Part shown: positions 3,628-25,456 of the stretch, in pieces
Layout of the letters: each line of letters starts with the position of its first letter
Numbering within the stretch: position 1 is the stretch's first letter
DNA from: an archaeon
GTDB taxonomy: Archaea; EX4484-52; B79-G9
Reading direction: 5' to 3'
Assembly (NCBI GenBank): GCA_043813875.1
Contig: JBDRKP010000056.1
Location: 1-25,456 of the forward strand
DNA: 25,456 bases
Made by a program: the position numbers and the translations under genes
Notes under the pieces: model-generated
What the model was told of the DNA's origin: nothing
Database searches by the model: none
The model's input: the letters and a program-made list of their open reading frames with translations, nothing else

Positions 3628-5769
3628 TCAATATGCTCTTGCGAAGTAGACCATGTGCTTTGCCGGTTTTTTGCAGCAGACGCATGTGGCCTTGCTCTCC
3701 AGTTTGCTCTTGCTGTTGCTGTCGAATGGGATTAATCTTGCGGTCGCTCCTGTCTCTTCCTTGATCTTCTCTTCGCAGCCAGGGCTTTCGCACCAGCCGG
3801 CAAGGATGAAGCCGTTCTCTATATTTTTTTTGAATTCAGCCATGTCTTTTGCTTTGAATATGCTCTTTTCGAGGAAGGCCTTTGCTTTGCTGAACATGTC
3901 TTTCTGCATGGCATCTAGCGCTTTTTTTGTCTCTGCTACCAGGTCTTTTTCTTTTATGAATGATTTGGCGCCTGTGTCGCGCCTGACGAGCACAACCTGG
4001 CCTTTTTCCATGTCCCTTGGGCCAAGCTCAATCCTTATAGGGATGCCTTTCAGTTCCCATTCGTTGTATTTGAAGCCGGCCTTGTGCTCTTCGCGGTCGT
4101 CCAGGATGACGGTGTGGCCTTCTATTTCCAGGGCGGCTTTCAGCTCTTTTGATTTTTCGATTGTCTCTTTTTTTGTCTTGTCAAATATTATCGGGACTAT
4201 GACTACGTGCGTCGGGGCTATCTGTGGCGGCATCACTAGGCCCTTGTCGTCTGAGTGGACCATTATGAGCCCGCCTATCAGGCGTGTCGAGATCCCCCAC
4301 GAGGTCTGCCAGACGTGCTTTGTCTGTTCGTCTTCGTCTATGAATTTTATGTCGAAGGCTTTTGCGAAGTTCTGGCCGAGGTGGTGGGATGTGCCTGCTT
4401 GGAGCGCTTTCTTATCCGGCATGAGCGCCTCAAGCGTTGTCGTGTATAGAGCGCCTGCGAATTTCTCGGATTCGGTCTTCTTTCCTGTGAGTACGGGTAT
4501 CGCAAGGACGTTCTCTATGAGGTCGCGGTATAGCTCTAGGATTGTCATGACTTCCCTGTCTGCGTCCTCTTTTGTCGCGTGGGCAGTGTGGCCTTCCTGC
4601 CACAAAAATTCTCTTGTTCTCAGGAAAGGTTTTGCGTGCTTGAATTCCCATCTCACTACGTTGCACCACTGGTTCAACAGAAGCGGGAGGTCGCGGTGGG
4701 ACCTTATCCATTTGGAGTATGATTCGTACATGATGGTCTCTGATGTAGGCCTTATTGCGAGGCGCTCATCCAGTTCGGTCTCGCCGGCATGCGTCACCCA
4801 TGCGACTTCGGGGGTGAAGCCTTTGACGTGCTCCTGCTCTTTGGTGAGGAGCTTTTCGGGAATCAACAGCGGAAAATACACATTCTTGTGGCCGAGGGCC
4901 TTTATCTTTTTGTCGACGTAGGACTGAATCTTTTCCCAGATGCTGTATGAGTTGGGTCTGAACACTATGCAGCCTGATACGGATGAGTAGTCTGCGAGCT
5001 CTGCTTTCTTTATGAGCTGGGTATACCATTCCGAGAAGTCTTCATTCTTCTTTACTGTCAGTCCAAGGTCCTGTATGTCTTTTTCTTTTTTTTCTGCCAT
5101 CATTGTCACCGCATTTTTGAATATTTCTATATCTCTCGCTTTCCCGCCTGCAAAGCGCGTTATCAGTTCTATTGTTTGGTCGAGCGCTTTATTAAGGTTT
5201 TGTTCATGAACTGACACTGCGTATATGTTGATGAGGAGGTTTTTTGTTGATTGTGTGACTTTTGCGAGTTCAGACGATGATGTCGATATGCCGAGGTCGA
5301 GTATCTTTTTTTCGTCTGCCACTACGAGTTCGTTTTTCAATGTGATGTTTTCTTTTGTGCCTATGCTTATGAATTTTTCGTTGTCTGCATCTCTTATTGT
5401 GATGCCGCCTTCTATCTTGTCGAGGTCGTAGGCGCCTATGGAGTAGCCGGTCTGTACGGAGATCGCGTTCATGGCGTCGACTACGTTGTTTATGTTGTAT
5501 AGGTGCTTGTCTTTCAAGACTCTTCTTATCAGGGCGTCGCCTGAGGAGCGGTATCGGTAGTAGTCCATGCCGTGCTTTTTCCAGAGGTTGTGGTAGTTTT
5601 TGAATATCTTTTCGTCTTTTAGGGTGTCGAGGTTCCATGCCGATTTTGCTGCTTTTTCTGCTTGTCTCATGATGTCTTTTAGCTCGTTGTCTGACGGCCT
5701 TACGGTTATGCCTGTGACGGTTGCGCTTGCCACTATTATCGGGTCGCCTGTCTTGAAAGTTATTTTCAT
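3628..5769 (-). CDS. proS: Proline--tRNA ligase (archaeal/eukaryotic type) with an N-terminal B3/4 (PheRS-beta editing-like) domain
   Basis: From residue ~224: FSEWY, RPTSET, RWEFK…FLRTREFLWQEGH, QAGTSHHLGQNF, TSWGISTR, WELKGIPIRIE and C-terminal YFARAY. Residues 1-~215 carry B3/4 motifs (YRSSGDALIRR, INNVVDAMNAIS, IGAYDLDKI). Confidence 0.95.
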   Translation of the reverse strand: MKITFKTGDPIIVASATVTGITVRPSDNELKDIMRQAEKAAKSAWNLDTLKDEKIFKNYHNLWKKHGMDYYRYRSSGDALIRRVLKDKHLYNINNVVDAMNAISVQTGYSIGAYDLDKIEGGITIRDADNEKFISIGTKENITLKNELVVADEKKILDLGISTSSSELAKVTQSTKNLLINIYAVSVHEQNLNKALDQTIELITRFAGGKARDIEIFKNAVTMMAEKKEKDIQDLGLTVKKNEDFSEWYTQLIKKAELADYSSVSGCIVFRPNSYSIWEKIQSYVDKKIKALGHKNVYFPLLIPEKLLTKEQEHVKGFTPEVAWVTHAGETELDERLAIRPTSETIMYESYSKWIRSHRDLPLLLNQWCNVVRWEFKHAKPFLRTREFLWQEGHTAHATKEDADREVMTILELYRDLIENVLAIPVLTGKKTESEKFAGALYTTTLEALMPDKKALQAGTSHHLGQNFAKAFDIKFIDEDEQTKHVWQTSWGISTRLIGGLIMVHSDDKGLVMPPQIAPTHVVIVPIIFDKTKKETIEKSKELKAALEIEGHTVILDDREEHKAGFKYNEWELKGIPIRIELGPRDMEKGQVVLVRRDTGAKSFIKEKDLVAETKKALDAMQKDMFSKAKAFLEKSIFKAKDMAEFKKNIENGFILAGWCESPGCEEKIKEETGATARLIPFDSNSKSKLESKATCVCCKKPAKHMVYFARAY

Positions 5770-14614: not shown

Positions 14615-15796
14615 TCATTTTATGTGTCTTATAAGGGTGGCGAGCTTAGGATATTTCAAGAATATCTTTATTGCCTTATGAATCTTGCCATTAAGCAAGT
14701 CACATATATCCTGAGGGGTGATGGTATCTGCGAGCATGTTCATGTCTGAGTCGGTCAATTTTTCTAATATATTCACGATTTTTTCGACATTGGACAGAGT
14801 GTTTCCTCTCTTCTTATACCATAGCCCATTGTATTTATTCAGTGTCTTTTGCGATGTGTCGCCGGTAAAGATGGCCTCATTTATTACTTCTGCTGCAATC
14901 TCTGCCGAATATGCGGATTCTTCGAGGCCGCCGCCATGAAGAGGATTTACCTGGTGGGCAGCATCACCAACTGCAAGGAAATTGTCTGTTGTCATGGATT
15001 TTAGAAAACCGCCGATGGGTATTGCGCCGGCGTTCTCTTCGATTATAGAGCCTTTTTTTATGCCTGGCTGGGTTTCTATCCATCTGTCAAGGTAGTATTT
15101 GGCTGTCTTTTCGTCTTTTACACAGGCTCCGATGCCGACGTTGGCTATGTGGCTGCCTTTGGGAAATATCCAGATGTATCCGCGCGGAGCAATACTTGAG
15201 CCCAGATAGATGCATACTTTGTGCGGGTCTTTAAGGTCGATGTTTGCCATCTCATACTGGTAACCGGGCTCTATTGTCCTGAGGGTGTTTTTTGTCTTCA
15301 GGCCTGCGAGTCTTGCAATCTTTGATTCTACTCCTTCTGCAGAGACTATTATCCTGCCGCTGATCTCTTTTTGTTCGCCGTTGTAGATCACTTTTACGCC
15401 ACTTATCATGCCGCCGGTTCTTATCAGGTCGATAACGTCTGCTTTTGTGTATATTTTTGCGCCTGATTTTGCGGCGTCGTATGCAAGAAACTTGTCGAAT
15501 ACTTTTCTTTCGATGATGAAGCCGTGCGGGTGTGCAGCTATTTCAATTGAGTGGCCGTTTGGCGCGAATATCATGCTGGCGTTTATTGTCTGGTTGACAA
15601 ATCGCTCTTTTCCGGTGTAGCCTAATTTGAACAGGTTTTCTGAAAGACCTATGCCTTCTGCGCATCTTTTAGGGGAACCTATCTCTGGCCTTTTCTCAAG
15701 AACCAATACTTTGAGGCCATGTTCTGCGCATCTTCTTGCGGTTATTGTGCCTGCGGGGCCAGCGCCGATTATTATTACGTCGTATTTCTGGTCCAT
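14615..15796 (-). CDS. Geranylgeranyl reductase family flavoprotein (DGGGPL reductase-like), paralog 1
   Basis: GAGPAG, PKRCAEG, YIWIFP (YxWxFP) and GDAAHQVNPLHGGG motifs; AGGTGA SD upstream. Confidence 0.92.
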   Translation of the reverse strand: MDQKYDVIIIGAGPAGTITARRCAEHGLKVLVLEKRPEIGSPKRCAEGIGLSENLFKLGYTGKERFVNQTINASMIFAPNGHSIEIAAHPHGFIIERKVFDKFLAYDAAKSGAKIYTKADVIDLIRTGGMISGVKVIYNGEQKEISGRIIVSAEGVESKIARLAGLKTKNTLRTIEPGYQYEMANIDLKDPHKVCIYLGSSIAPRGYIWIFPKGSHIANVGIGACVKDEKTAKYYLDRWIETQPGIKKGSIIEENAGAIPIGGFLKSMTTDNFLAVGDAAHQVNPLHGGGLEESAYSAEIAAEVINEAIFTGDTSQKTLNKYNGLWYKKRGNTLSNVEKIVNILEKLTDSDMNMLADTITPQDICDLLNGKIHKAIKIFLKYPKLATLIRHIK

Positions 15797-15903
15797 TTTA
15801 TTTCACCTGTTAGATCTCTTTTAATTAATATGTTCTGACGGGGCAGAAACGGGCACTAATACCAGACTCACTATAGTCGTTCTTGTCTTTATTTTTTATT
15901 TTC

Positions 15904-15938
15904 TTCGAAAATTCAGCAAATCGACGATTTGCCCGGAT
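15904..15938. repeat. Second copy of the 35-nt hairpin motif seen at 12781-12815
   Basis: ttcgaaaat-tca-gcaaatc-gac-gatttgc-cc-ggat aligns without gaps to ttcgaaaat-cct-atgaatc-gat-gattcat-aa-ggat. Confidence 0.65.
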
Positions 15939-15977
15939 GGATGAAGGCAAGTTGGTTTGTTGGTAAGTTTTCTTCAT

Positions 15978-17174
15978 TTATTTCTTGCCTTCACTATAGT
16001 TCAAATACTTCACGAAGGTTGCGAGCTTTGGATTCTTTATCAGGATCTTTAGCAGCTTGTGTGTCTTGCCGCATGCAAGGTCAACTATGTCCTGACCGCT
16101 GAATGCTTTTGTAATCATGTTTAAATCGGAATCAGATACCCGACGGTATATATTTACTACTTTTTCGACATCCTGTAATTTCTTCCCTCTTTTTTCCCAC
16201 CATAGGGTGTTGTATGTGTCAAGAGCAGCCTTTGACGTGTCGCATGAATCAATCGCCTGTTTTATTACAGCAGATGCAATCTCGGCGGAAAATGAGGCTT
16301 CTTGGAGGCCGCCGCCATGAAGAGGGTTTACCTGGTGGGCTGCATCGCCCACAGCAAGGAAATTATCTGTTGTCATGACGCTGAGGAAACCTCCTACAGG
16401 GATTGCGCCGCAATTCTCTTCGATTATTGAGCCTTTTTTTATTTCCGGATGAGTATCAATCCAGTTGTCAAGATAATATTTGGCGGTCTTTTCGTGATTG
16501 CTGCCAATACATATGCCTACGTTGGCGATATGAGCACCTTTGGGGAATATCCAGATATATCCGCCGGGAGCAATGCCGGTGCCGACATAGAAATATAGTT
16601 TGTGATGGTCACTGATATCTATGTTTGCCATCTCATACTGATAGCCTGCGTCTAGTGTGTTTTTTGTGTTTCTTGTGGGAAGCCCGGCTATTCTTGAGAT
16701 CTTTGATTCTACTCCGTCTGCGGCAACGAGCATATTGCCATATATCTCTTTCTGTTCTCCGTTATAGTTCACCCTTACGCCGGAGATGATGCCGTCTGTG
16801 CGAATCAAATCGAATGCATCGGCTTTTGTGTAGATTTTCGCCCCTGCTTTTGATGCGTCGTATGCCAGATATTTGTCAAATACCTTGCGCTCGAGGACGT
16901 AGCCGCCCTGGCCGCCGGGCAATTCTATTGAACTGCCGTCGGGGGTGATAAACAGGCCGCCGTCTATTGTCTGTGCAATGAATTGCTCTTTTCCTGTGTA
17001 GCCGAGGCGCTCTAAGTCCTGATGGCCAATGCCTTCTGCACAGCGTTTGGGTGCGCCGATTTCTGGCCTCTTTTCGAGAACGAGCACTTTAAGGCCGTAT
17101 TCTGCGCATTTTTTTGCGGTTATTGTGCCTGCAGGACCTGCGCCTATTATTATTACGTCGTATCTTTGATCCAT
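15978..17174 (-). CDS. Geranylgeranyl reductase family flavoprotein (DGGGPL reductase-like), paralog 2
   Basis: Same motifs as paralog 1; 45 of the first 50 aa are identical to it. Confidence 0.92.
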   Translation of the reverse strand: MDQRYDVIIIGAGPAGTITAKKCAEYGLKVLVLEKRPEIGAPKRCAEGIGHQDLERLGYTGKEQFIAQTIDGGLFITPDGSSIELPGGQGGYVLERKVFDKYLAYDASKAGAKIYTKADAFDLIRTDGIISGVRVNYNGEQKEIYGNMLVAADGVESKISRIAGLPTRNTKNTLDAGYQYEMANIDISDHHKLYFYVGTGIAPGGYIWIFPKGAHIANVGICIGSNHEKTAKYYLDNWIDTHPEIKKGSIIEENCGAIPVGGFLSVMTTDNFLAVGDAAHQVNPLHGGGLQEASFSAEIASAVIKQAIDSCDTSKAALDTYNTLWWEKRGKKLQDVEKVVNIYRRVSDSDLNMITKAFSGQDIVDLACGKTHKLLKILIKNPKLATFVKYLNYSEGKK

Positions 17175-17185
17175 TCAGTCACACT

Positions 17186-17368
17186 CTAGAGGTTTGTGGT
17201 AAGTCTCAATGCGCCTACTGGACAGAAGATGGTGCATGTGGCGCATTCTGTGCACTGGTTTTTGTCGACTATGATCATCATGTCTTTTAATGTGAGGGCG
17301 TCTTTCGGGCATATCGAGACGCAGCCGCCGCATGACAAGCATCTGCTTTTGTTGACGTTTAATACCAT
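17186..17368 (-). CDS. 2[4Fe-4S] dicluster ferredoxin
   Basis: CLSCGGCVSICP and CTECATCTIFCP; 11 nt upstream of GGR paralog 2. Confidence 0.93.
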   Translation of the reverse strand: MVLNVNKSRCLSCGGCVSICPKDALTLKDMMIIVDKNQCTECATCTIFCPVGALRLTTNL

Positions 17369-17581: not shown

Positions 17582-18097
17582 ATGAGCCCTAAAGATGACA
17601 ACTGTTTTGGAAGTAAAGGTCCTGAGGTTTCAAAGAAGGTGGCGGATGATTGTGAGCCCACCACTAATATCGCAAACAAGGATCATGCCAAGAAGGATAC
17701 TGTGACCATAAATGAAAAGGAGAAGAGCGTCTTGTTGTCTCTTAATCCAAGGCTCTACCCACAGACTGCCGTGATGAGGGCATCTTACAGGTTCATCGAT
17801 GATTTTGATGTGATTGTTGACGGTGATCCGCTTTCTATTATCTTTGTGACGATAAAGGCAAAGGCGGAGGATGATGCGTCCCTCTCAGAACTTGAGGAAC
17901 TTGCGCACGCTTTTTTTAAGGAGCTTATCCATGCCAATGTCGAGGAGACGCAGGCGCGAAGGTATGCTGATACGAGGAATGCGCTTATCGGCGCGTCGCT
18001 TAGGAGCATGATGCCTTCTCTTGCTCTAAAGGAAAAGGAAAGCGAGATGGTGAAGGTAAAGGAAAAGAAAGAGAATAAGAAATCTAATTCCTGCTGA
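17582..18097 (+). CDS. hxsD: HxsD-like protein (His-Xaa-Ser system accessory protein)
   Basis: LYPQTAVMRASYRFIDDF…IFVTI…FFKELI…TRNALIGASL fits the HxsD pattern as I recall it (LY…A.Y.F.D…F..EL…R..LI..AL); the HxsB/HxsC-like neighbours support this. Confidence 0.72.
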   Translation: MSPKDDNCFGSKGPEVSKKVADDCEPTTNIANKDHAKKDTVTINEKEKSVLLSLNPRLYPQTAVMRASYRFIDDFDVIVDGDPLSIIFVTIKAKAEDDASLSELEELAHAFFKELIHANVEETQARRYADTRNALIGASLRSMMPSLALKEKESEMVKVKEKKENKKSNSC

Positions 18098-18113
18098 GTC
18101 CGGTCTTTTTTAT

Positions 18114-19172
18114 CTATGGTGGGCAGGGGAGGTAAGGGCTGACGTGTTTTTTGAATACGTCACAAGTGATGCATCCCTGCTTTTTGTTTCCGTTGTTCAG
18201 TATGGCTGCTTTTTTCAGCAATGTGTCGCAGTAGGTGCAGCTTTCGCAGTCTAATGCGCATTTTTGCATGGTGTTGAAGAAGTCAAGCCTGTCGAGGACT
18301 TTGTTGTTTATGAAGGTGAACATGCATTTCATGCCGGTCATGTCGAGAAGGTCTAAGAGGTCGCCGTTGTATTGCTCGTCTATGTAGGCTTTTAATGTGG
18401 TCTCTATCTGTGGTGTCGTGAATGTCCTTGTGGCCAGCTTGAAGTAATCAGTGAAGGGCTTGTAGTGCTTTATGTCTTCGGGCCTTATGAATGGTATCCT
18501 GAATACTTTTTTTGGGTCTTTTCTTATGACTGTTATGCAGGAGTGCGCAAGGAACTGGGCGTCGGGTGTCCTGTGGGCTATCGAGTTGAAATGCATAAGC
18601 CTAAAGGGGCAGTTGCTTAGGCAGCCCTCGTTCAGCAGGAGCTTGATTTTCAGGCCTGTGGCTTTCTTTATATTTTTTATGAGGTCCAGGTCACGGTTTA
18701 TGTCGCGGTCCAATGTCAGGACGTCTATACCCATGTCTTTCAGGTACAGGGCGTCCTCTATTTTTGAGGTGTAGCAGTTCACGGATGAGTGGAGTTCCAG
18801 TTCTGGGATAGTATTTTTAATTTCTGTTATGTAGAATGGGTTTGTTATGGCGGCGCTTTTCAGGCCGATTTTTGCGAGATTGTTTAGGTAATCGGTCACT
18901 TTTTTCATGCGGGCCGTGTTGCCGCATCTCTTGGCTTCGCATGTTGCGTTGAGAAGGATCTGCGAGTTGATGCCGTTCTTTTCGCAGGTCTTTATAACGG
19001 TCCGGATGTTTTCACGATAGTCTTTTTCTATGGGGCGGAACCTGCCTGTTGAAAGGTACTCGGGCGGTATCGGGAAATATAGGCAATCGACGCTGTCGCT
19101 GTAGGCTTCAAGGAGTTCCAGCATCAATAGGTCATTGTTGTAGCCAATTGAATATCTTGTCTTTTTTGCCAT
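18114..19172 (-). CDS. Peptidase U32 family Fe-S protein (putative O2-independent hydroxylase)
   Basis: LLNATC, HSSVN, LDRDINRD, LLNEGCLSNCP, FIRPED and FKLATR motifs, plus C-terminal CxxxCxxCxxC and CxxC. Confidence 0.8.
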   Translation of the reverse strand: MAKKTRYSIGYNNDLLMLELLEAYSDSVDCLYFPIPPEYLSTGRFRPIEKDYRENIRTVIKTCEKNGINSQILLNATCEAKRCGNTARMKKVTDYLNNLAKIGLKSAAITNPFYITEIKNTIPELELHSSVNCYTSKIEDALYLKDMGIDVLTLDRDINRDLDLIKNIKKATGLKIKLLLNEGCLSNCPFRLMHFNSIAHRTPDAQFLAHSCITVIRKDPKKVFRIPFIRPEDIKHYKPFTDYFKLATRTFTTPQIETTLKAYIDEQYNGDLLDLLDMTGMKCMFTFINNKVLDRLDFFNTMQKCALDCESCTYCDTLLKKAAILNNGNKKQGCITCDVFKKHVSPYLPCPP

Positions 19173-19251
19173 CAGTTTTATTTAGCTGCGATAAAAATTT
19201 ATATGAGGGCGTACAATTGTTAGTATCAGATATATTGGGATGTTGAGATTC
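19173..19251. promoter_or_regulatory. Short divergent promoter region shared by the U32 gene and the precursor-rSAM operon
   Basis: One AT block taaaaatttatat (19192-19204) is readable as TATA on both strands; palindrome acaattgt at 19213-19220. Confidence 0.5.
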
Positions 19252-19551
19252 ATGGGCATACGCGATAAGATAAAGAAAATCAGGAAGTGCGAGATATTCA
19301 AGATCGCTGGAAATGAGAAAACAGGGGTTGTCAATAGCCTTGTATTGCTCGGGTCTATCGGTGCTCTTCTTGCCGTGGTTGAGCATGAGGTGGAGGCAGT
19401 CACATGCGATGCCAATAGCGAGATATCGGATACTGATTTAGAGCCTGTCGGACCTGTGATTGATGCAAGCCGGTGGAAAAATCACTGCTGGAACTGGTCT
19501 TGGTGCTGGAGCTGGGGATGGGGTTGGGATAATTCAAGCAGCAGTGAGTAA
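19252..19551 (+). CDS. Putative RiPP precursor with a C-terminal alternating Trp-Xaa core
   Basis: 99 aa (103 from ATG 19240): basic N-terminus, hydrophobic segment, acidic linker, then RWKNHCWNWSWCWSWGWGWDNSSSSE; directly upstream of two radical SAM genes. Confidence 0.85.
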   Translation: MGIRDKIKKIRKCEIFKIAGNEKTGVVNSLVLLGSIGALLAVVEHEVEAVTCDANSEISDTDLEPVGPVIDASRWKNHCWNWSWCWSWGWGWDNSSSSE

Positions 19552-19572
19552 CCCTTTCTGGTGATTGTCATA

Positions 19573-20523
19573 ATGGAGCCGGTAAAGACTGAGCGGAATG
19601 ATGCGGCACATCAACTTAAATTAGACGGTATCGTCTATTTCTCTTTGGGACTTGCGTGTGACAATGCATGCCTTCATTGCGTGGCTGAACACCGCAATGT
19701 CGATACATGGAATTCAAGAGAGAATATGAATACCTGTGAAGTTGTTTCATATTTTGACAGGATAAGCGGGAATAAGAATCTTACGCTTGAGATTTCGGGT
19801 GGGGAGCCGACGATCAGAAATGATTTCCTATACCTGATGGAATACCTGTCCATCAATGCACCGTGGATCAAGAAGATATTGCTGACCAATGGAAGGTCTT
19901 TTTCTAATGCTGATTTCACGTCGAGGGCCGCACTTTATCCACCGGAGTGCAGCCTTGTGCCGCTGCACGCCCATGAACCGAAACTCCATGATATGATAAC
20001 AAGACGTGCCGGGAGTTTCAATGAGACTGTTCTTGGCATACGAAATATGTTCGAATATGGAATGATGGTAATCCCGAAGATCGTGGCGAACAGGCTGAAC
20101 TATAAGATACTGCCGGATTTTGTGGAGTTTGTGGCGCAGAATTTCCCGGAAGCAAAGACGGTCGGCATCGATACGATGGATGTCTCGGGGGCCGCTGAGA
20201 TGAACAAGGACAGGATAGCGGTCAAACACAGCACTGTTGCCCCATACATGGAGAAAGCGATGGATACGGCTGTAAAGTACGGGATGCATGTCAATGCCAT
20301 ATATATGCCTTTCTGCCTCGTGGGCGAGAAATACAGGCAGTATATATGGGAAGGCGCTTCGATTGTCATGTACAAGGACTCTCATGGTGAAACTGTGGAT
20401 ATCAGAGGAGAGCGCGGAGTCGTCGAGGCATGTGGAGAATGCAGGTACATAGGTAGATGTCCGGGTAGCTGGTTCACCTATTTCAAGGAGTTCGGGGCAG
20501 AGGAACTGAAGCCAGTCGTGTGA
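19573..20523 (+). CDS. Radical SAM protein, HxsC-like
   Basis: CDNACLHC, SGGEPT, LTNGRSF, HDMITRRAGSFNETVLGI, PFCL and C-terminal CxxCxxxxxCxG. GGTGA at 19560-19564 precedes ATG 19573. Confidence 0.85.
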   Translation: MEPVKTERNDAAHQLKLDGIVYFSLGLACDNACLHCVAEHRNVDTWNSRENMNTCEVVSYFDRISGNKNLTLEISGGEPTIRNDFLYLMEYLSINAPWIKKILLTNGRSFSNADFTSRAALYPPECSLVPLHAHEPKLHDMITRRAGSFNETVLGIRNMFEYGMMVIPKIVANRLNYKILPDFVEFVAQNFPEAKTVGIDTMDVSGAAEMNKDRIAVKHSTVAPYMEKAMDTAVKYGMHVNAIYMPFCLVGEKYRQYIWEGASIVMYKDSHGETVDIRGERGVVEACGECRYIGRCPGSWFTYFKEFGAEELKPVV

Positions 20524-20575
20524 TTTCTTATTTTTACTCTATTTTACGGATATTTAAAGTTTATACCAAAACAGG

Positions 20576-22009
20576 ATGTTTATGGAGAGCCACATAGTAT
20601 CTCTGATAGATAAAGAGCATGAAAACCAGGATAATGGTCTTCTGCTAAACGAATATTTCCAGAAAAAACTGGGCAACGGCAGAATGCTTGTTGCGACCCG
20701 GCACGGCTCATGGTCTATCCTTTCACTTGAACAGTATGAGGCATTGCGGAGTGGAGAATTCGCCAAGGATAAAATACTTTGTCGCGAACTCAAGGAGAAA
20801 GGCATCATCCTTGATGAAAACTCTGTCCATAAGATTGTTGATGCGTTCAGGGAGAATTATCATTGTCTTGCCGATGCGCGACCTCTGTGTATCGTTTACC
20901 TGACCAACAGGTGCAACCTGAACTGCGAATACTGCCTTTCGGATACGAATGATATTGACGATGCAGATGACCTGTCTTATGAGATGATGGAGGATATTAT
21001 CAATTTCATCGCAAAGATGCCGCATGCTCACATAGCGCTCGAATTCCAGGGCGGCGAGACGCTCCTCTGCTTTGATATGCTGAAGAAATTCCTTCTGCGG
21101 TTCGATGAGAGGATGAAGGCTGCCGGAAAGGTCGTGGACTCGAAGGTCGTCGTGTCCAATCTTACGCTCATGAATGAGGAGATCGCTCTGTTCATCCTGA
21201 AGAACAATATCGGACTTTGCTCTTCTCTTGACGGGCCGAGGGAGCTTCATGATGCGAACAGGAAGTATCCTGACGGGCAGGGGTCTTATGATGCGGTCAT
21301 GAAGGGGATTGATTTTTTTGCAAAAATAGGGCGAAAGATTCCCTTAATGCCGACAATCACAGCGGAGTCTCTTAAGCTTGACCCGAAGGCGATTGTGGAT
21401 GAGTACAGGAAAGCCGGGCTTGATCATATTGTCCTTCGGCCGGTGTGTCCTATCGGGAGGGCGCGCAGCGGGTCGCTTTTGATGGAGCCGAAGGATTATT
21501 TTGAGTTCTGGAAGAAGGCTCTTGATTACATGATCGCTCTTTCTATGGACGGGAATGTGTTCTATGATAAGACTGTACAGGATATGCTGGTTGCGATATT
21601 TACGACCAGGAGGCAGAACATGTGCATGAGGCGGCCGTGCGGCGCCGGCATCAACCATTTCGCGTTCTATCTTGACGGCTCAATCTATGCATGCGATAAC
21701 GGGAAAAAGATGGATGCTTTTAAGCTCGGAAATGTTTGTGAGTCCAGTTATGAAGATGTCTTTCTGAATACATTGCAGCTTCGGGCAAATACAACTGAAT
21801 TCCAGCCGCTTTGCGATACGTGCGTGTATGGCGCTTTCTGCGGGTCGTGCATGTGCAAGTCTTATGCGAGGTCAGGAAAAGTGGTGCCTATGACTCCGAT
21901 GGATTTCGACTGCAAGATCAATAAGATGATGTTTGATCATATTTTCGATAAGATGGATGATCCAACATATCGGACTGTGTTTGAGATGTGGGTACGGCTG
22001 AAAGCATGA
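20576..22009 (+). CDS. Radical SAM/SPASM peptide maturase, HxsB-like
   Basis: N-terminal extension (TRHGSWSILS…LKEKGII), CNLNCEYC, LEFQGGE, SLDGPRELHDANR, RPCGAGI…DGSIYACD and CDTCVYGAFCGSC…C. Confidence 0.88.
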   Translation: MFMESHIVSLIDKEHENQDNGLLLNEYFQKKLGNGRMLVATRHGSWSILSLEQYEALRSGEFAKDKILCRELKEKGIILDENSVHKIVDAFRENYHCLADARPLCIVYLTNRCNLNCEYCLSDTNDIDDADDLSYEMMEDIINFIAKMPHAHIALEFQGGETLLCFDMLKKFLLRFDERMKAAGKVVDSKVVVSNLTLMNEEIALFILKNNIGLCSSLDGPRELHDANRKYPDGQGSYDAVMKGIDFFAKIGRKIPLMPTITAESLKLDPKAIVDEYRKAGLDHIVLRPVCPIGRARSGSLLMEPKDYFEFWKKALDYMIALSMDGNVFYDKTVQDMLVAIFTTRRQNMCMRRPCGAGINHFAFYLDGSIYACDNGKKMDAFKLGNVCESSYEDVFLNTLQLRANTTEFQPLCDTCVYGAFCGSCMCKSYARSGKVVPMTPMDFDCKINKMMFDHIFDKMDDPTYRTVFEMWVRLKA

Positions 22010-22920
22010 TTGAAGCGTATTTTTTGAAGGTCATAGCATTCGCTTTGATACTCTGGGTTCTCGGATTGTTCGGGAGACAGTCAATCTTTTTGTATGTATT
22101 GTTCTCTTCTGTCTCTTTTTTTGTGAGGCCGGTCGAAGCTATGCCTGAATTCATGATATCTGCCATCTTTGTGTTTCTTTTTCTGTATGTGATATCCACT
22201 ACTGTCAGGAATTCTTTCAGGAGCGGTTTTTTGAGGTTTTCAAAGCATGCTCTTCTGCAATCCTACAGGAAAAGGAGCGTGGTCTATTCTGTGTTCGTTG
22301 TGTCTTTTCTTATGATGCTTGCTGGCATCGGCGACAGGACTCTGCTTTTTTTAGGGAGCTTTTTTGGGTTTCTTGCCCTCGGGCTTCTTTCCAAAAGCGT
22401 GAGCTTCGCAAGATATGACTGTTACGGGATAATCAATTATAGGAATGCTTTCATTGCTGCTCTTTTCTATGCAGCTTATCATTCCATGTACATGGAGATA
22501 TTTGTGGGCATGATCATCGGGATACTTTATCTTGCGCTTATTGTCATCTCTTCTCTTGTGTATGATACGTTCACTTTCGAGTGCCCTGTCGGGGCGCTTA
22601 AGGAGGGGATGGTGAGCGCGGATTATGTCGTGAAAAAAGACGGCAGGGTGTACAGGAAAGAGCTGAATAATGTCATCACGTTGCAGTCTTTTTTGAGGAG
22701 AAGGATAATGCTACGCGCAGAGGGTGAGGAGATTGTCATCAGTCCTCTTCGGGCGCTGTCAAAGAAGGATATTGATTTTTTGAAGAACATGAAAAAGGGC
22801 AGGGAGTTTGATTCTTTATGCGTGCAGAATACTGTGGATATGAGAGCCTTTGTCGTTGGGGGCATTATCCTTTCTACTGTTGTCTTTTATATTTACCCTT
22901 ATCTTGTCGTTTTTGTATAG
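22006..22920 (+). CDS. Polytopic membrane protein with a C-terminal region resembling archaeal A24 prepilin/preflagellin peptidases
   Basis: ATGA overlap with the hxsB-like stop; multiple TM segments; GIGD at 22324-22335; soluble insert beginning VGALKEGMV followed by a final TM helix. Confidence 0.6.
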   Translation: MIEAYFLKVIAFALILWVLGLFGRQSIFLYVLFSSVSFFVRPVEAMPEFMISAIFVFLFLYVISTTVRNSFRSGFLRFSKHALLQSYRKRSVVYSVFVVSFLMMLAGIGDRTLLFLGSFFGFLALGLLSKSVSFARYDCYGIINYRNAFIAALFYAAYHSMYMEIFVGMIIGILYLALIVISSLVYDTFTFECPVGALKEGMVSADYVVKKDGRVYRKELNNVITLQSFLRRRIMLRAEGEEIVISPLRALSKKDIDFLKNMKKGREFDSLCVQNTVDMRAFVVGGIILSTVVFYIYPYLVVFV

Positions 22921-22962: not shown

Positions 22963-25456
22963 CTATAATGTCTTGAATGTATCGGATAATGCTATCGATG
23001 AGATGCTCTGGGGGTTTGTCAGTTCGATCTGATAATAATAATCTGTGGCTGGATCGAGGCCGATGATTGTCAGCTCATGATGTGCTGCCAAGATGGATAT
23101 TGGCTCGCTATCGCCGTACATGATTGTTTTGCCATATCTGATAACACCGGTTGTCGGAACGTCTGTGTCGAAGGTTATCTTTGCGTCATTGGTTCCAGGC
23201 TCTATTGTGACGGATCCGACGATATTCGGCATATCAGTTATCATTAGATTAACTGTTGCCTCGGCAGGGTTTCCTGTGTTGGGTGTGGCTACGGCCTTTA
23301 TCCTATACATGCCTGTGTCAGTCACGGTTATTGCGCCGGTATATGGCGATGATGAGCCCGGCGAGGCTATCGGAGGACCGTAGGTGCCTGTATCAGAGTC
23401 AAACACGAAGAATTCTACTGAGACTATGCCGGATGAATGGCGGGCGTCTACTGTCAATGTTACAGGGTTATCTACTGTTTCGCCGTCAAGCGGGGAGGTT
23501 ATGTTTATGAATGGATCTGATGTGTCTATACCGGCGATGAATGTGTATTCGGATGATGTGACTGTCTCTGTGCCGTCGCTCGATTCGACGATTATGTAGT
23601 AGTCCTGTTCCGCAATCAGGCCGCCGATTCCGATGCTGTGTGCAAGAAGCTCTGTGGGGTCGGTGATGTCCGTGTACGGGCCGCCGGCTGTCGTGCTGTA
23701 TTTCAGCGTCGAGTCTGAGAGCCTGTTTGTTGTCCATTGGATTGTTACGGATGTTCCTGAAATAGATGCGGTCGGGCCGGATGTTATCTCGAACGGGCCT
23801 GAAAGTGCAAGCGATGGGGGGATTGTACCGTAAGGATTGTTGCATGATGAGCCGTGAGTGTCGCAGAAATGGGTGGCACCGGGTGGGCCGCAGCAGTTCA
23901 TGTCGACGATGGGCACGGTGACATAGAATCTGAACTTGAGCTTTTGCCAGTTGTTTGCCTCTGGATTATATATCTTGTTCCTGTCGTCTGTTATAGTCAC
24001 GAGGAATTTCAGGTTTTTCAGGATGTACCTGCGGTCGTAGTCCATGGTGCACCTGTTTACGTCTGCGTAATTGGTATGGCCACAGCCACCGCTGTCAGGT
24101 TCGCATGTGCAATCTCCGACATCAGCATATGTCGCCTTTATGTATTCAATGTATTCGAATTTTTCTGACTCGATGTGTTCTGCGGTGTCGCATGCGCCCT
24201 TGTTGACGTTGGTAGTGTCGTGGATAGTGTAATATGAGAGCAGGTATTGTATCTGCCATGTCACGCCCTCTGTTGCTGTCAGATCGTCATAATCTGATGC
24301 GAGCTGATTGAGGGCGGCGATGATCGATGTGTAGATCTCTGCGCTTGTATAGGATTTAACTTGGTCGTCCGGGCACCATGCCGGGTCTGTGCAGGTAGGA
24401 TAGCCGCAGTTCTCTCCGGATGGGCCGGAATGGGCGTTCATGTCTAAGTTATAGAGCATGTCCCAGAGGCGGCTCTGGAGGAGTGTCTGTGAGGTGTCTG
24501 TGAATCTTTCCGCGTAGCTGTAGAGTTTGTAGTAGCGGATTTTTACTTCTTCGGTTATGAGGCCGCTGTCGCGTATCTCGGCCAGATTTTTTGTGGGGTC
24601 CATGATATCTTTGACTGTGGCGGTTATCGCGCCCTGTGCCTCGTCGGGCCAGACGATGGCCTGGGTGTTATCATTGTTGCCTCTTGTCATTGAACAGTTG
24701 AGGGGGGCTATGTCTATCCTGATGTCTGCGTCTGCGTTGCGATCTGCCAGGACCGTGGCCATGCTTGCGTGATATTCGTTCAGGTATTGCCTGAGAAGGG
24801 CGTTCGGAGTTGTTATGACGGCTGGATTGTATATGGATGCTGTGATCTGCTTGACCATCGCGACGCCGTCTATGTCGCCGGTCTCGTTCTTTGCGGTTAT
24901 GTGTATTGATGTGGCGAACTCGTCTGCCTTTATTCTTGTGAGTTTGTAGGTGTAGATGCCGTCTTTGGTGATTGTAGGTGGGGTGGTGCCGACGGGCGCA
25001 AGCGAGAGGCATCCTTCGCTTCCAAGGCACGATACTGTGACTTGCCCTTTTTTGAGCATGAGAATCTGGATAGTTATATATAGGGGGTATTTGTCTGCAT
25101 TTATCTCGTCGATGTATTGCCTGTGGGCCTCATTGTTCAAGAAAAGCATAATAAAGCGGTCGCCTAGCATGGTGTTCACGTCGGTGTCTTTGAGGTAGGG
25201 GACGCGCTTCAATGTGTTTTCGCAGTTGGGCACTGTCCAGAAGGGGATCCTTGATAGGAACAGGAACTCGTTGCCGAGGAGGATTTTGGGCTCTTCAGAT
25301 ACTGTGCTGTCAGCGACATCATCGTTGTCTACGTCTATGAGTGACGCTTCTGCATGGCCGCCGTAGGTTGCGAGCTCTTTTGATGCCGAGTTCAATGAGA
25401 AGAAGGCGGCGGTCTTCAAGAAGCCCTGTTTCATGGCCTGGACTTCCTTGTCCATT
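22963..25456 (-). CDS. Large, probably extracellular protein with Cys-rich region and C-terminal FN3-like / Ig-like / FN3-like domains; 5' end probably outside the window
   Basis: 830-aa frame open to the window edge; VTIQWTTNRLSDSTLKY…GLIAEQDYYI, PFINITSPLDGETV…SVEF and AKITFDTDVPTTGVIRYG…GLDPATDYYY. Confidence 0.8.
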   Translation of the reverse strand, partial: MDKEVQAMKQGFLKTAAFFSLNSASKELATYGGHAEASLIDVDNDDVADSTVSEEPKILLGNEFLFLSRIPFWTVPNCENTLKRVPYLKDTDVNTMLGDRFIMLFLNNEAHRQYIDEINADKYPLYITIQILMLKKGQVTVSCLGSEGCLSLAPVGTTPPTITKDGIYTYKLTRIKADEFATSIHITAKNETGDIDGVAMVKQITASIYNPAVITTPNALLRQYLNEYHASMATVLADRNADADIRIDIAPLNCSMTRGNNDNTQAIVWPDEAQGAITATVKDIMDPTKNLAEIRDSGLITEEVKIRYYKLYSYAERFTDTSQTLLQSRLWDMLYNLDMNAHSGPSGENCGYPTCTDPAWCPDDQVKSYTSAEIYTSIIAALNQLASDYDDLTATEGVTWQIQYLLSYYTIHDTTNVNKGACDTAEHIESEKFEYIEYIKATYADVGDCTCEPDSGGCGHTNYADVNRCTMDYDRRYILKNLKFLVTITDDRNKIYNPEANNWQKLKFRFYVTVPIVDMNCCGPPGATHFCDTHGSSCNNPYGTIPPSLALSGPFEITSGPTASISGTSVTIQWTTNRLSDSTLKYSTTAGGPYTDITDPTELLAHSIGIGGLIAEQDYYIIVESSDGTETVTSSEYTFIAGIDTSDPFINITSPLDGETVDNPVTLTVDARHSSGIVSVEFFVFDSDTGTYGPPIASPGSSSPYTGAITVTDTGMYRIKAVATPNTGNPAEATVNLMITDMPNIVGSVTIEPGTNDAKITFDTDVPTTGVIRYGKTIMYGDSEPISILAAHHELTIIGLDPATDYYYQIELTNPQSISSIALSDTFKTL

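Follow-up and report, generated by a model that had tools for sequence, protein, structure and literature searches.

We analyzed a 25,456-nt contig (JBDRKP010000056.1, assembly GCA_043813875.1; the whole stretch is hereafter called the window) from an archaeon of the GTDB lineage EX4484-52, B79-G9, and found that six open reading frames (ORFs) between positions 17,582 and 22,920 probably constitute a tryptophan-type variant of the Hxs (HXS) radical S-adenosylmethionine (SAM) maturation system, in which a small Trp-rich protein is the counterpart of the precursor HxsA, its core would be modified, and its product would go to the cell envelope. The gene content and family relationships of the locus, its conservation, the purifying selection on its precursor gene, the strict adjacency of its genes and the separate clade formed by its enzymes are all direct observations. 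An earlier note on this DNA had described a cluster of hxsD-like, U32, precursor, HxsC-like, HxsB-like and membrane protein genes here; all six ORFs are present where it had placed them, their family matches agree with that description, and every window gene is intact. The features of the locus are as follows:

17582..18097, plus strand: HxsD-like small protein, 171 amino acids (TIGR03976, 37.1 bits)
18114..19172, minus strand: Peptidase-U32-family protein, 352 amino acids (PF01136 Peptidase_U32, 37.1 bits, cut-off 22.4)
19198..19205, plus strand: TATA-box-like element TTTATATG, 47 nt 5' of the precursor ATG (picked by eye and given low weight)
19252..19551, plus strand: Trp-type HxsA-like precursor, 99 amino acids, or 103 if translation starts at the ATG at 19240; no family match
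19474..19527, plus strand: Trp-rich core WKNHCWNWSWCWSWGWGW of the precursor, the presumed modification site
19561..20523, plus strand: HxsC-like radical SAM enzyme, 320 amino acids (TIGR03977, 143.5 bits)
20576..22009, plus strand: HxsB-like radical SAM/SPASM enzyme, 477 amino acids (TIGR03978, 322.4 bits; Pfam Radical_SAM and SPASM domains)
21988..22920, plus strand: polytopic membrane protein, 310 amino acids (PF06819 Arc_PepC, 38.3 bits)

Successive genes are separated by 16, 79, 9 and 52 nt, followed by a 22-nt overlap of the HxsB-like and membrane protein genes. The order in the window, hxsD-(U32)-precursor-hxsC-hxsB, is shared with its relatives, where the usual arrangement is hxsD-precursor-hxsC-hxsB.

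The precursor ends with the core WKNHCWNWSWCWSWGWGW followed by DNSSSSE. As the earlier note had observed, this core has no HxS repeat and holds 8 Trp in 18 residues, a density with a binomial P of 1.2e-12 against the 0.86% Trp of 17 other window proteins. None of the other stop-to-stop frames in the whole genome, among 28,019 that reach 30 amino acids, is as Trp-dense as the precursor; the runner-up has 6 Trp in 20 residues. The N-terminus has a basic helix (IRDKIKKIRK), and between this and the core come the motif EKTG, a hydrophobic helix, an 'EVEA' segment and an invariant Cys; a search of NCBIfam with the protein gave no match. When 12 homologues were aligned, the M..KDKIKKIR helix, the hydrophobic segment 'EKTGV.NGLVLLGA.AG' and an 'EA.A'-like end were conserved, and G25, C52, W75, W82 and W86 were invariant. 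The Trp-rich ORF is a real, conserved gene under purifying selection, with a ratio of non-synonymous to synonymous substitution rates (dN/dS) of 0.16–0.18 at dS of 1.2–1.5 between the window precursor and two relatives. Among 26 distinct family members the core contains 3–13 Trp (median 7.5), opens with a W-x-[ND]-H-x-W motif in 17 and has a negative net charge in 18. Spacings of 3 residues are the commonest of the 173 Trp-to-Trp gaps in the family (68 times), followed by 2 residues (42 times) and 5 residues (25 times), and the window's own core has a Trp period of 2.

A profile of the 12-homologue precursor alignment matched 19 of 42 genomes in the window's phylum and none of 359 archaeal genomes outside it (401 sampled as relatives, 19 positive). 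Searched against 1.84 billion proteins, it matched 17 cluster representatives, for which the sole name carried was 'hypothetical protein'; 16 of these have at least five Trp in their last 50 residues, and the remaining one has three. The proposal that homologous loci would carry a Trp-rich small ORF is borne out, with all 22 profile matches in the 19 genomes adjoining an HxsC-like gene. The precursor lies directly upstream of hxsC in the 13 loci where phmmer also marked it, and hxsC is the sole Hxs-like gene detected in 2 of the 22. Some relatives carry two Trp-type loci. An HxsB-like protein is encoded by 29 of 61 relatives (E of 1e-30 or better), and the Trp-type gene set is kept at 30–70% identity across five families of the phylum. 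As far as searched, the Trp-type system is confined to this one small phylum of DPANN archaea. A separate observation concerns the counts by family: the HxsB sequences of G041 (family code f4; locus L042) and G004 (the window's genus; locus L043) are identical, as are those of loci L044 and L045. The Trp-type count for the single f4 genome may reflect shared or cross-binned contigs.

The three enzymes are clearly Hxs-like because their best matches lie far above the next families. The HxsB-like protein covers positions 7–466 of the 466 in TIGR03978, and its 322.4 bits exceed the next family by 184 bits (runner-up NCBIfam families PapB with 138.6, DynA with 111.8 and CbpB with 101.7 bits). Cys residues 113, 117, 120, 355, 373, 413, 416, 422 and 425 are invariant. 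For the HxsC-like protein the next family is HxsC4 at 82.2 bits; it has a CxxxCxxC motif at C33/C37/C40 plus four other invariant Cys, and all 13 of its homologues have TIGR03977 as their best match (top E 8.9e-91). All ten HxsD-like homologues match TIGR03976 and conserve the stretches 'LNPRLYP' and 'ELIHAxVEETQARRYADTRNAL', in which the HxsD motifs LYW and LLNDYxLRE, named in PMC13128918, appear as 'LYP' and 'ELIHAxVEE'. The family assignments made in the earlier note therefore stand insofar as each enzyme has its Hxs model as best NCBIfam match by a wide margin, and fall short insofar as all three score below the cut-offs of those models (370 for TIGR03978, 267.9 for TIGR03977 and 50 for TIGR03976); no protein of the genome exceeds the TIGR03978 cut-off. 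In some relatives HxsC is doubled: two radical SAM domains are joined in one protein of 587–608 amino acids, or two separate genes flank the precursor (loci L029, L031, L032, L048; L030). A complex prediction for the HxsB-like protein with the precursor scored 0.01 (mark 0.32) and gave no verdict.

To place the HxsB-like enzyme more broadly, we used an HxsB alignment to scan a single genome of each prokaryotic species, which yielded 596 relatives among 604 candidate stretches. Among the best 80 of the 596, the closest HxsB-bearing contigs are assigned to Candidatus Nanohalarchaeota, Aenigmatarchaeota or 'Nanobdellati', all of them DPANN archaea. We built a tree of 92 HxsB proteins (a quick IQ-TREE search under LG+G4, support by the Shimodaira–Hasegawa-like approximate likelihood ratio test (SH-aLRT) only, precursor labels curated by hand). 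A branch with an SH-aLRT of 99 has on one side every one of the 13 rows in which a Trp-type precursor was visible, together with 2 rows ending at contig edges and 1 long-branch row. The other side holds all 48 His-x-Ser-associated HxsB proteins and 28 rows with no precursor seen.

The more distant HxsB homologues (about 30–36% identity) come from Woesearchaeota, other Aenigmatarchaeota, Omnitrophota, Elusimicrobiota, Patescibacteria and Myxococcota, and beside them, usually downstream of hxsB, sit small ORFs ending in (H-x-S)n. These His-x-Ser-type ORFs have an N-terminal 'PKIKK.I..FL..EEGKISK', then a hydrophobic helix and then the C-terminal repeats, which is the same layout as that of the Trp-type peptide. 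Common descent of the two leaders is likely but unproven from their sequences. The loci in DPANN archaea, Patescibacteria, Omnitrophota, Elusimicrobiota and Myxococcota resemble that of the window in having hxsD and hxsB adjacent and a small precursor in which a KIKK helix is followed by an acidic/Gly motif and then a hydrophobic helix, and the archaeal ones among them also have an A24-family membrane protein with an Arc_PepC domain. They differ in having H-x-S repeats, a precursor downstream of hxsB, an A24 peptidase with both Asp motifs and an HxsB on the far side of the branch with 99% support; in addition, a homologue of the large protein next to the window locus (described below) was undetected in them when the window protein was the query.

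We also considered whether a canonical HxsA elsewhere in the genome could be the real substrate, a possibility raised in the earlier note, and found none. In the genome (91.5% complete), the best E for TIGR03979 was 0.12, a six-frame scan for His-x-[ST] triple repeats returned one chance frame and no HxS-repeat ORF, and a profile of archaeal and candidate-phyla HxsA proteins had no match at E up to 1. The Trp-type precursor gene itself is single-copy.

The bacterial HXS system (HxsD-HxsB-HxsC-HxsA, from Pseudomonadota) is, according to its description (Li et al., Nat Commun 2026, PMC13128918), an anti-phage system with the gene order hxsD-hxsB-hxsC-hxsA in 99.6% of cases. In the same text, HxsA of Escherichia coli has a signal peptide, needs HxsB, HxsC and HxsD together for its processing and is exported; its SHRSS motif gains a +8 Da shift, the periplasm is where it counters the entry of phage DNA, and HxsC binds HxsD (PMC13128918). 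The model given there is that the basic repeats bind DNA and that the effector stays in the envelope (PMC13128918). Like this canonical system, the window locus combines an HxsB-type enzyme with a SPASM domain, an HxsC-type radical SAM enzyme and a small HxsD, and it encodes within the operon a presumed target that has a repeat region and, at its N-terminus, a putative export signal; the enzymes themselves are without signal peptides. Unlike it, the locus has a Trp-rich, mostly acidic core (the HXS core is basic His-x-Ser), a 99-amino-acid target without a peptidoglycan-binding domain, the order D-A-C-B instead of D-B-C-A, enzymes below the family cut-offs, an archaeal host and two extra conserved partners (the dead A24 homologue and the large surface protein). 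The PADLOC models, compared with the locus, gave a generic radical SAM (viperin) similarity and nothing further. A literature search found no description of a Trp-type Hxs system, with subscription journals mostly outside the search and the HXS supplements unseen, and in the literature searched there was likewise no described RiPP (ribosomally synthesized, post-translationally modified peptide) class with a Trp core and this enzyme set, which agrees with the earlier note. The archaeal SPASM family treated in PMC13692751 is a different one (TIGR04463). Taken by score, the HxsB-like protein is also distinct from the triceptide maturases, with 74 bits for TIGR04261 (GrrM/OscB; cut-off 310) and 58.2 bits for NF041707 (YhhB; cut-off 445).

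Several radical SAM/SPASM maturases of RiPPs cross-link Trp, including StrB/SuiB (Lys-Trp), DarE/DynA, WgkB and the cyclophane formers GrrM/OscB and YhhB. The links to Trp that related SPASM enzymes form are of the C-C, ether or thioether kind, and triceptide (three-residue cyclophane) cores have a repeated aromatic-X-X motif. These maturases belong to the same SPASM radical SAM superfamily as the HxsB-like protein and act on aromatic-rich cores; the commonest spacing in the Trp-type family is the W-x-x spacing of 3, with spacings of 2 and 5 also frequent. They differ in lacking HxsC or HxsD partners and in sequence, since the HxsB-like protein scores 111.8 bits with DynA, 76.5 with WgkB, 74 with GrrM/OscB and 58.2 with YhhB compared to 322.4 with HxsB.

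The membrane protein, whose origin the earlier note had missed, is, by its sequence, a truncated, catalytically dead homologue of the prepilin-type A24 peptidase encoded in His-x-Ser-type archaeal loci. It matches PF06819 Arc_PepC, the C-terminal domain of archaeal A24 proteins, at 38.3 bits (cut-off 23.4), as do 8 of 9 Trp-type homologues, and none of the nine Trp-type membrane proteins matches PF01478 (Peptidase_A24) at E up to 1. A profile of these nine copies finds proteins of 360–425 amino acids directly upstream of hxsD in the His-x-Ser-type archaeal loci; when 15 of these were tested in Pfam, PF01478 was found in 12 at E of 0.01 or better and Arc_PepC in 13. In a joint alignment, the His-x-Ser-type proteins have 'S-x-x-D-[IVL]-K' in their first helix and 'AGDAKLF' in a later helix, which contain the two Asp (the second in a GxGD-like motif) that we take to be the catalytic pair of A24 enzymes. 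The Trp-type proteins begin about 85 residues later, with the region of the first Asp missing, and have Ser, Thr or Ala at the position of the second. This truncation is real because a stop codon stands immediately before the start codon of the window gene. An 'AGIGD' motif in the window protein had been considered as a sign of an active A24 protease and was rejected, the motif being neither conserved nor aligned with the catalytic one. The genome encodes one intact A24 peptidase elsewhere. An AlphaFold2 model of the membrane protein (predicted local distance difference test score (pLDDT) 80.3) had no Foldseek match at E of 0.001 or better, and VIA-align of the model gave a best Z of 7.2 with helical bundles, which is uninformative.

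From this comparison we infer a substrate relationship, a chemistry, an export route and a role as follows. The N-terminus of the precursor, with its basic helix, EKTG motif, hydrophobic helix and Ala-rich end, would serve as leader and as an export or anchor signal, and the Trp-rich, mostly acidic C-terminal core would be the substrate. In the cytoplasm, radical chemistry on the core would be carried out by the HxsB-like SPASM enzyme and by the HxsC-like enzyme together with its HxsD-like partner. Trp, Cys and His, its conserved side chains, are the candidate sites, and the likeliest products would be C-C, C-N or C-S cross-links in which the indole rings take part, along with the Cys and His residues scattered among them. 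The modified peptide could then be inserted into or exported across the membrane via its hydrophobic helix, with the dead A24 homologue probably acting as a membrane receptor or chaperone rather than a protease, and would act at the cell envelope. By analogy, this sequence of events is consistent with the precedent of E. coli HxsA, which is a signal-peptide protein matured by HxsB, HxsC and HxsD and exported (PMC13128918). Our best guess for the envelope role, again by analogy, is either antiviral, like that of bacterial HXS, or one together with pilin-like neighbours in host contact.

Some observations weigh against assigning the locus to an Hxs-type system with a Trp core. All three enzyme scores lie under curated NCBIfam equivalog cut-offs, the Trp-to-Trp spacing in the family is mixed with no single repeat unit evident, and the electrostatic DNA-binding model of bacterial HXS is not transferable because Trp-type cores are acidic. 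Comparison of the Trp-type and His-x-Ser-type precursors by hhalign gave 54% probability (E 1.3e-4) over 19 columns of the N-terminal helix alone, and because this match is weak we call the leader layouts similar rather than proven homologous. Finally, the locus is surrounded by housekeeping genes with no obvious defence island; since it has these surroundings and HxsB subclades largely track family codes, long residence in the lineage fits better than a mobile defence island.

The earlier note had framed the locus as a RiPP cluster making a cross-linked poly-Trp peptide. On this view it would yield a classical RiPP natural product, with the leader removed and a free, diffusible peptide serving as an antibiotic or signal, which we regard as possible but unlikely. 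The precursor is indeed small with a leader-plus-core layout, a segment resembling Ala-x-Ala sits behind its hydrophobic helix (by eye), and the families that follow HxsB for the HxsB-like protein (PapB, DynA and CbpB) are peptide maturases. However, that framing ignores that bacterial HXS matures an exported anti-phage effector, and the sole Hxs system studied yields an effector retained in the envelope and not a diffusible compound (PMC13128918). The locus also has neither a transporter nor an active leader protease, its A24 homologue having lost both Asp motifs, and it occurs across five families within a single phylum, next to housekeeping genes.

Two further explanations concern the Trp-rich protein itself. 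If it were a small membrane-anchored accessory, the enzymes would act on the large neighbour with a pilin-like signal or on a non-peptide substrate, which would fit the adjacency of the large protein in 14 of 15 Trp-type loci and the short 'EKT[GA]' motif that it shares with the precursor leader. Yet the precursor lies between hxsD and hxsC on the same strand and, in all 22 loci, adjoins hxsC; the large gene, which is convergent, forms a separate operon with small pilin-like ORFs; and in His-x-Ser-type loci the substrate, whether established (PMC13128918) or presumed, is the corresponding small ORF with repeats. We consider this explanation very unlikely. That the locus is a decaying or non-functional Hxs remnant with a drifted core is scarcely credible: the enzyme scores below family cut-offs and the degenerate peptidase homologue are what decay would leave, but the precursor is under purifying selection, the catalytic cysteines are invariant, the gene set is conserved at 30–70% identity in five families, and the window genes are all intact. 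An Hxs-type maturation system with a Trp core is the reading that we prefer.

If the preferred reading is correct, neither His-x-Ser nor the binding of DNA through basic repeats would be essential to the Hxs system, because related enzymes would accept a Trp core. Even in E. coli, Hxs enzyme chemistry is unsolved beyond the +8 Da change at SHRSS (PMC13128918), and a Trp-based core would provide a second, spectroscopically convenient substrate for working out the action of HxsB and HxsC. The system would also add a conserved, lineage-specific envelope component for DPANN archaea, a group in which little is known of the cell surface or of defence against viruses, and a prepilin-type peptidase turned into a catalytically dead partner would be an evolutionary oddity. 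It should be of interest to radical SAM and RiPP chemists and to DPANN biologists, on a basis that is entirely comparative genomics. A bolder proposal, which we judge quite unlikely, is a new archaeal surface molecule: a rigid, cross-linked poly-Trp peptide with a dead-peptidase 'receptor' that works with the giant pilin-signal protein, either as part of a host attachment apparatus or as an antiviral gate of these ultra-small archaea that would be their analogue of HXS. If true, indole cross-links at W-x-[ND]-H-C-W would represent a new class of RiPP or protein modification.

Two genes next to the cluster were examined along with the U32 gene inside it:

17186..17368, minus strand: ferredoxin-like ORF, 60 amino acids, neighbour of the cluster
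22963..25455, minus strand: large surface protein, at least 830 amino acids, 5' end lost at the contig end; convergent with the cluster

The earlier note had counted the U32 gene as part of the set, and this did not hold up: only 6 of 22 Trp-type loci, all of the window's nearest subclade, have it between hxsD and the precursor, and it is best described as accessory. U32 recurs in an unrelated Hxs-like clade. A homologue of the ferredoxin-like ORF flanks Hxs-like genes in L042–L045 and L053; it is a possible electron donor of the system, or it may belong rather to the adjacent geranylgeranyl-reductase genes.

The earlier note had missed that the large convergent surface protein is conserved next to Trp-type loci. 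Its homologues adjoin 14 of 15 such loci, the single miss being at a contig end, and are absent from 5 non-Trp loci of the same set; with the window protein as query, none was detected in the 71 non-Trp loci of a second set. Full-length homologues start with a short basic stretch, Gly or Ala and about 20 hydrophobic residues, and small ORFs with similar N-termini precede the large-protein genes. By eye, these N-termini resemble archaeal class III (pilin-type) signals. Pfam finds fn3/Ig-like domains alone, near the C-terminus. A model of the N-terminal 620 amino acids (pLDDT 72.4) had no Foldseek match at E of 0.001 or better, and a search of the ESM Atlas with the protein gave no usable match. 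We also noted a 'FEKTA(A/L)F' motif in 7 of 11 large-protein homologues, about 40–60 residues past the N-terminal hydrophobic helix, which reads 'FLKTAAF' in the window; it resembles 'EKTGV' in the leader of the precursor, either by chance or as a possible recognition element common to both.

A separate Hxs-like clade (L037, L062, L063 and L069) has the order hxsD-hxsC-(second hxsD-like)-hxsB. The hxsC-like gene is on the opposite strand in L037, L062 and L063 and on the same strand in L069, and a divergent U32 gene was detected in the first three loci but not in L069. Neither a Trp-rich nor a His-x-Ser ORF could be detected in these four loci, and the gap between hxsC and hxsB encodes the second HxsD-like protein.

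As for the DNA itself, a fraction of 0.06–0.30 of its sampled words is present in three DNA sequencing runs, and no RNA run was listed. Elsewhere in the window, two tandem ORFs within 14615–17368 (minus strand; 393 and 398 amino acids) are similar to each other and were read by eye as geranylgeranyl-reductase-like. A prolyl-tRNA synthetase of 713 amino acids (3628–5769, minus strand) has an N-terminal B3_4 domain (PF03483, residues 71–206) before its class II core, an unusual fusion in which the added domain may serve in editing or tRNA binding.

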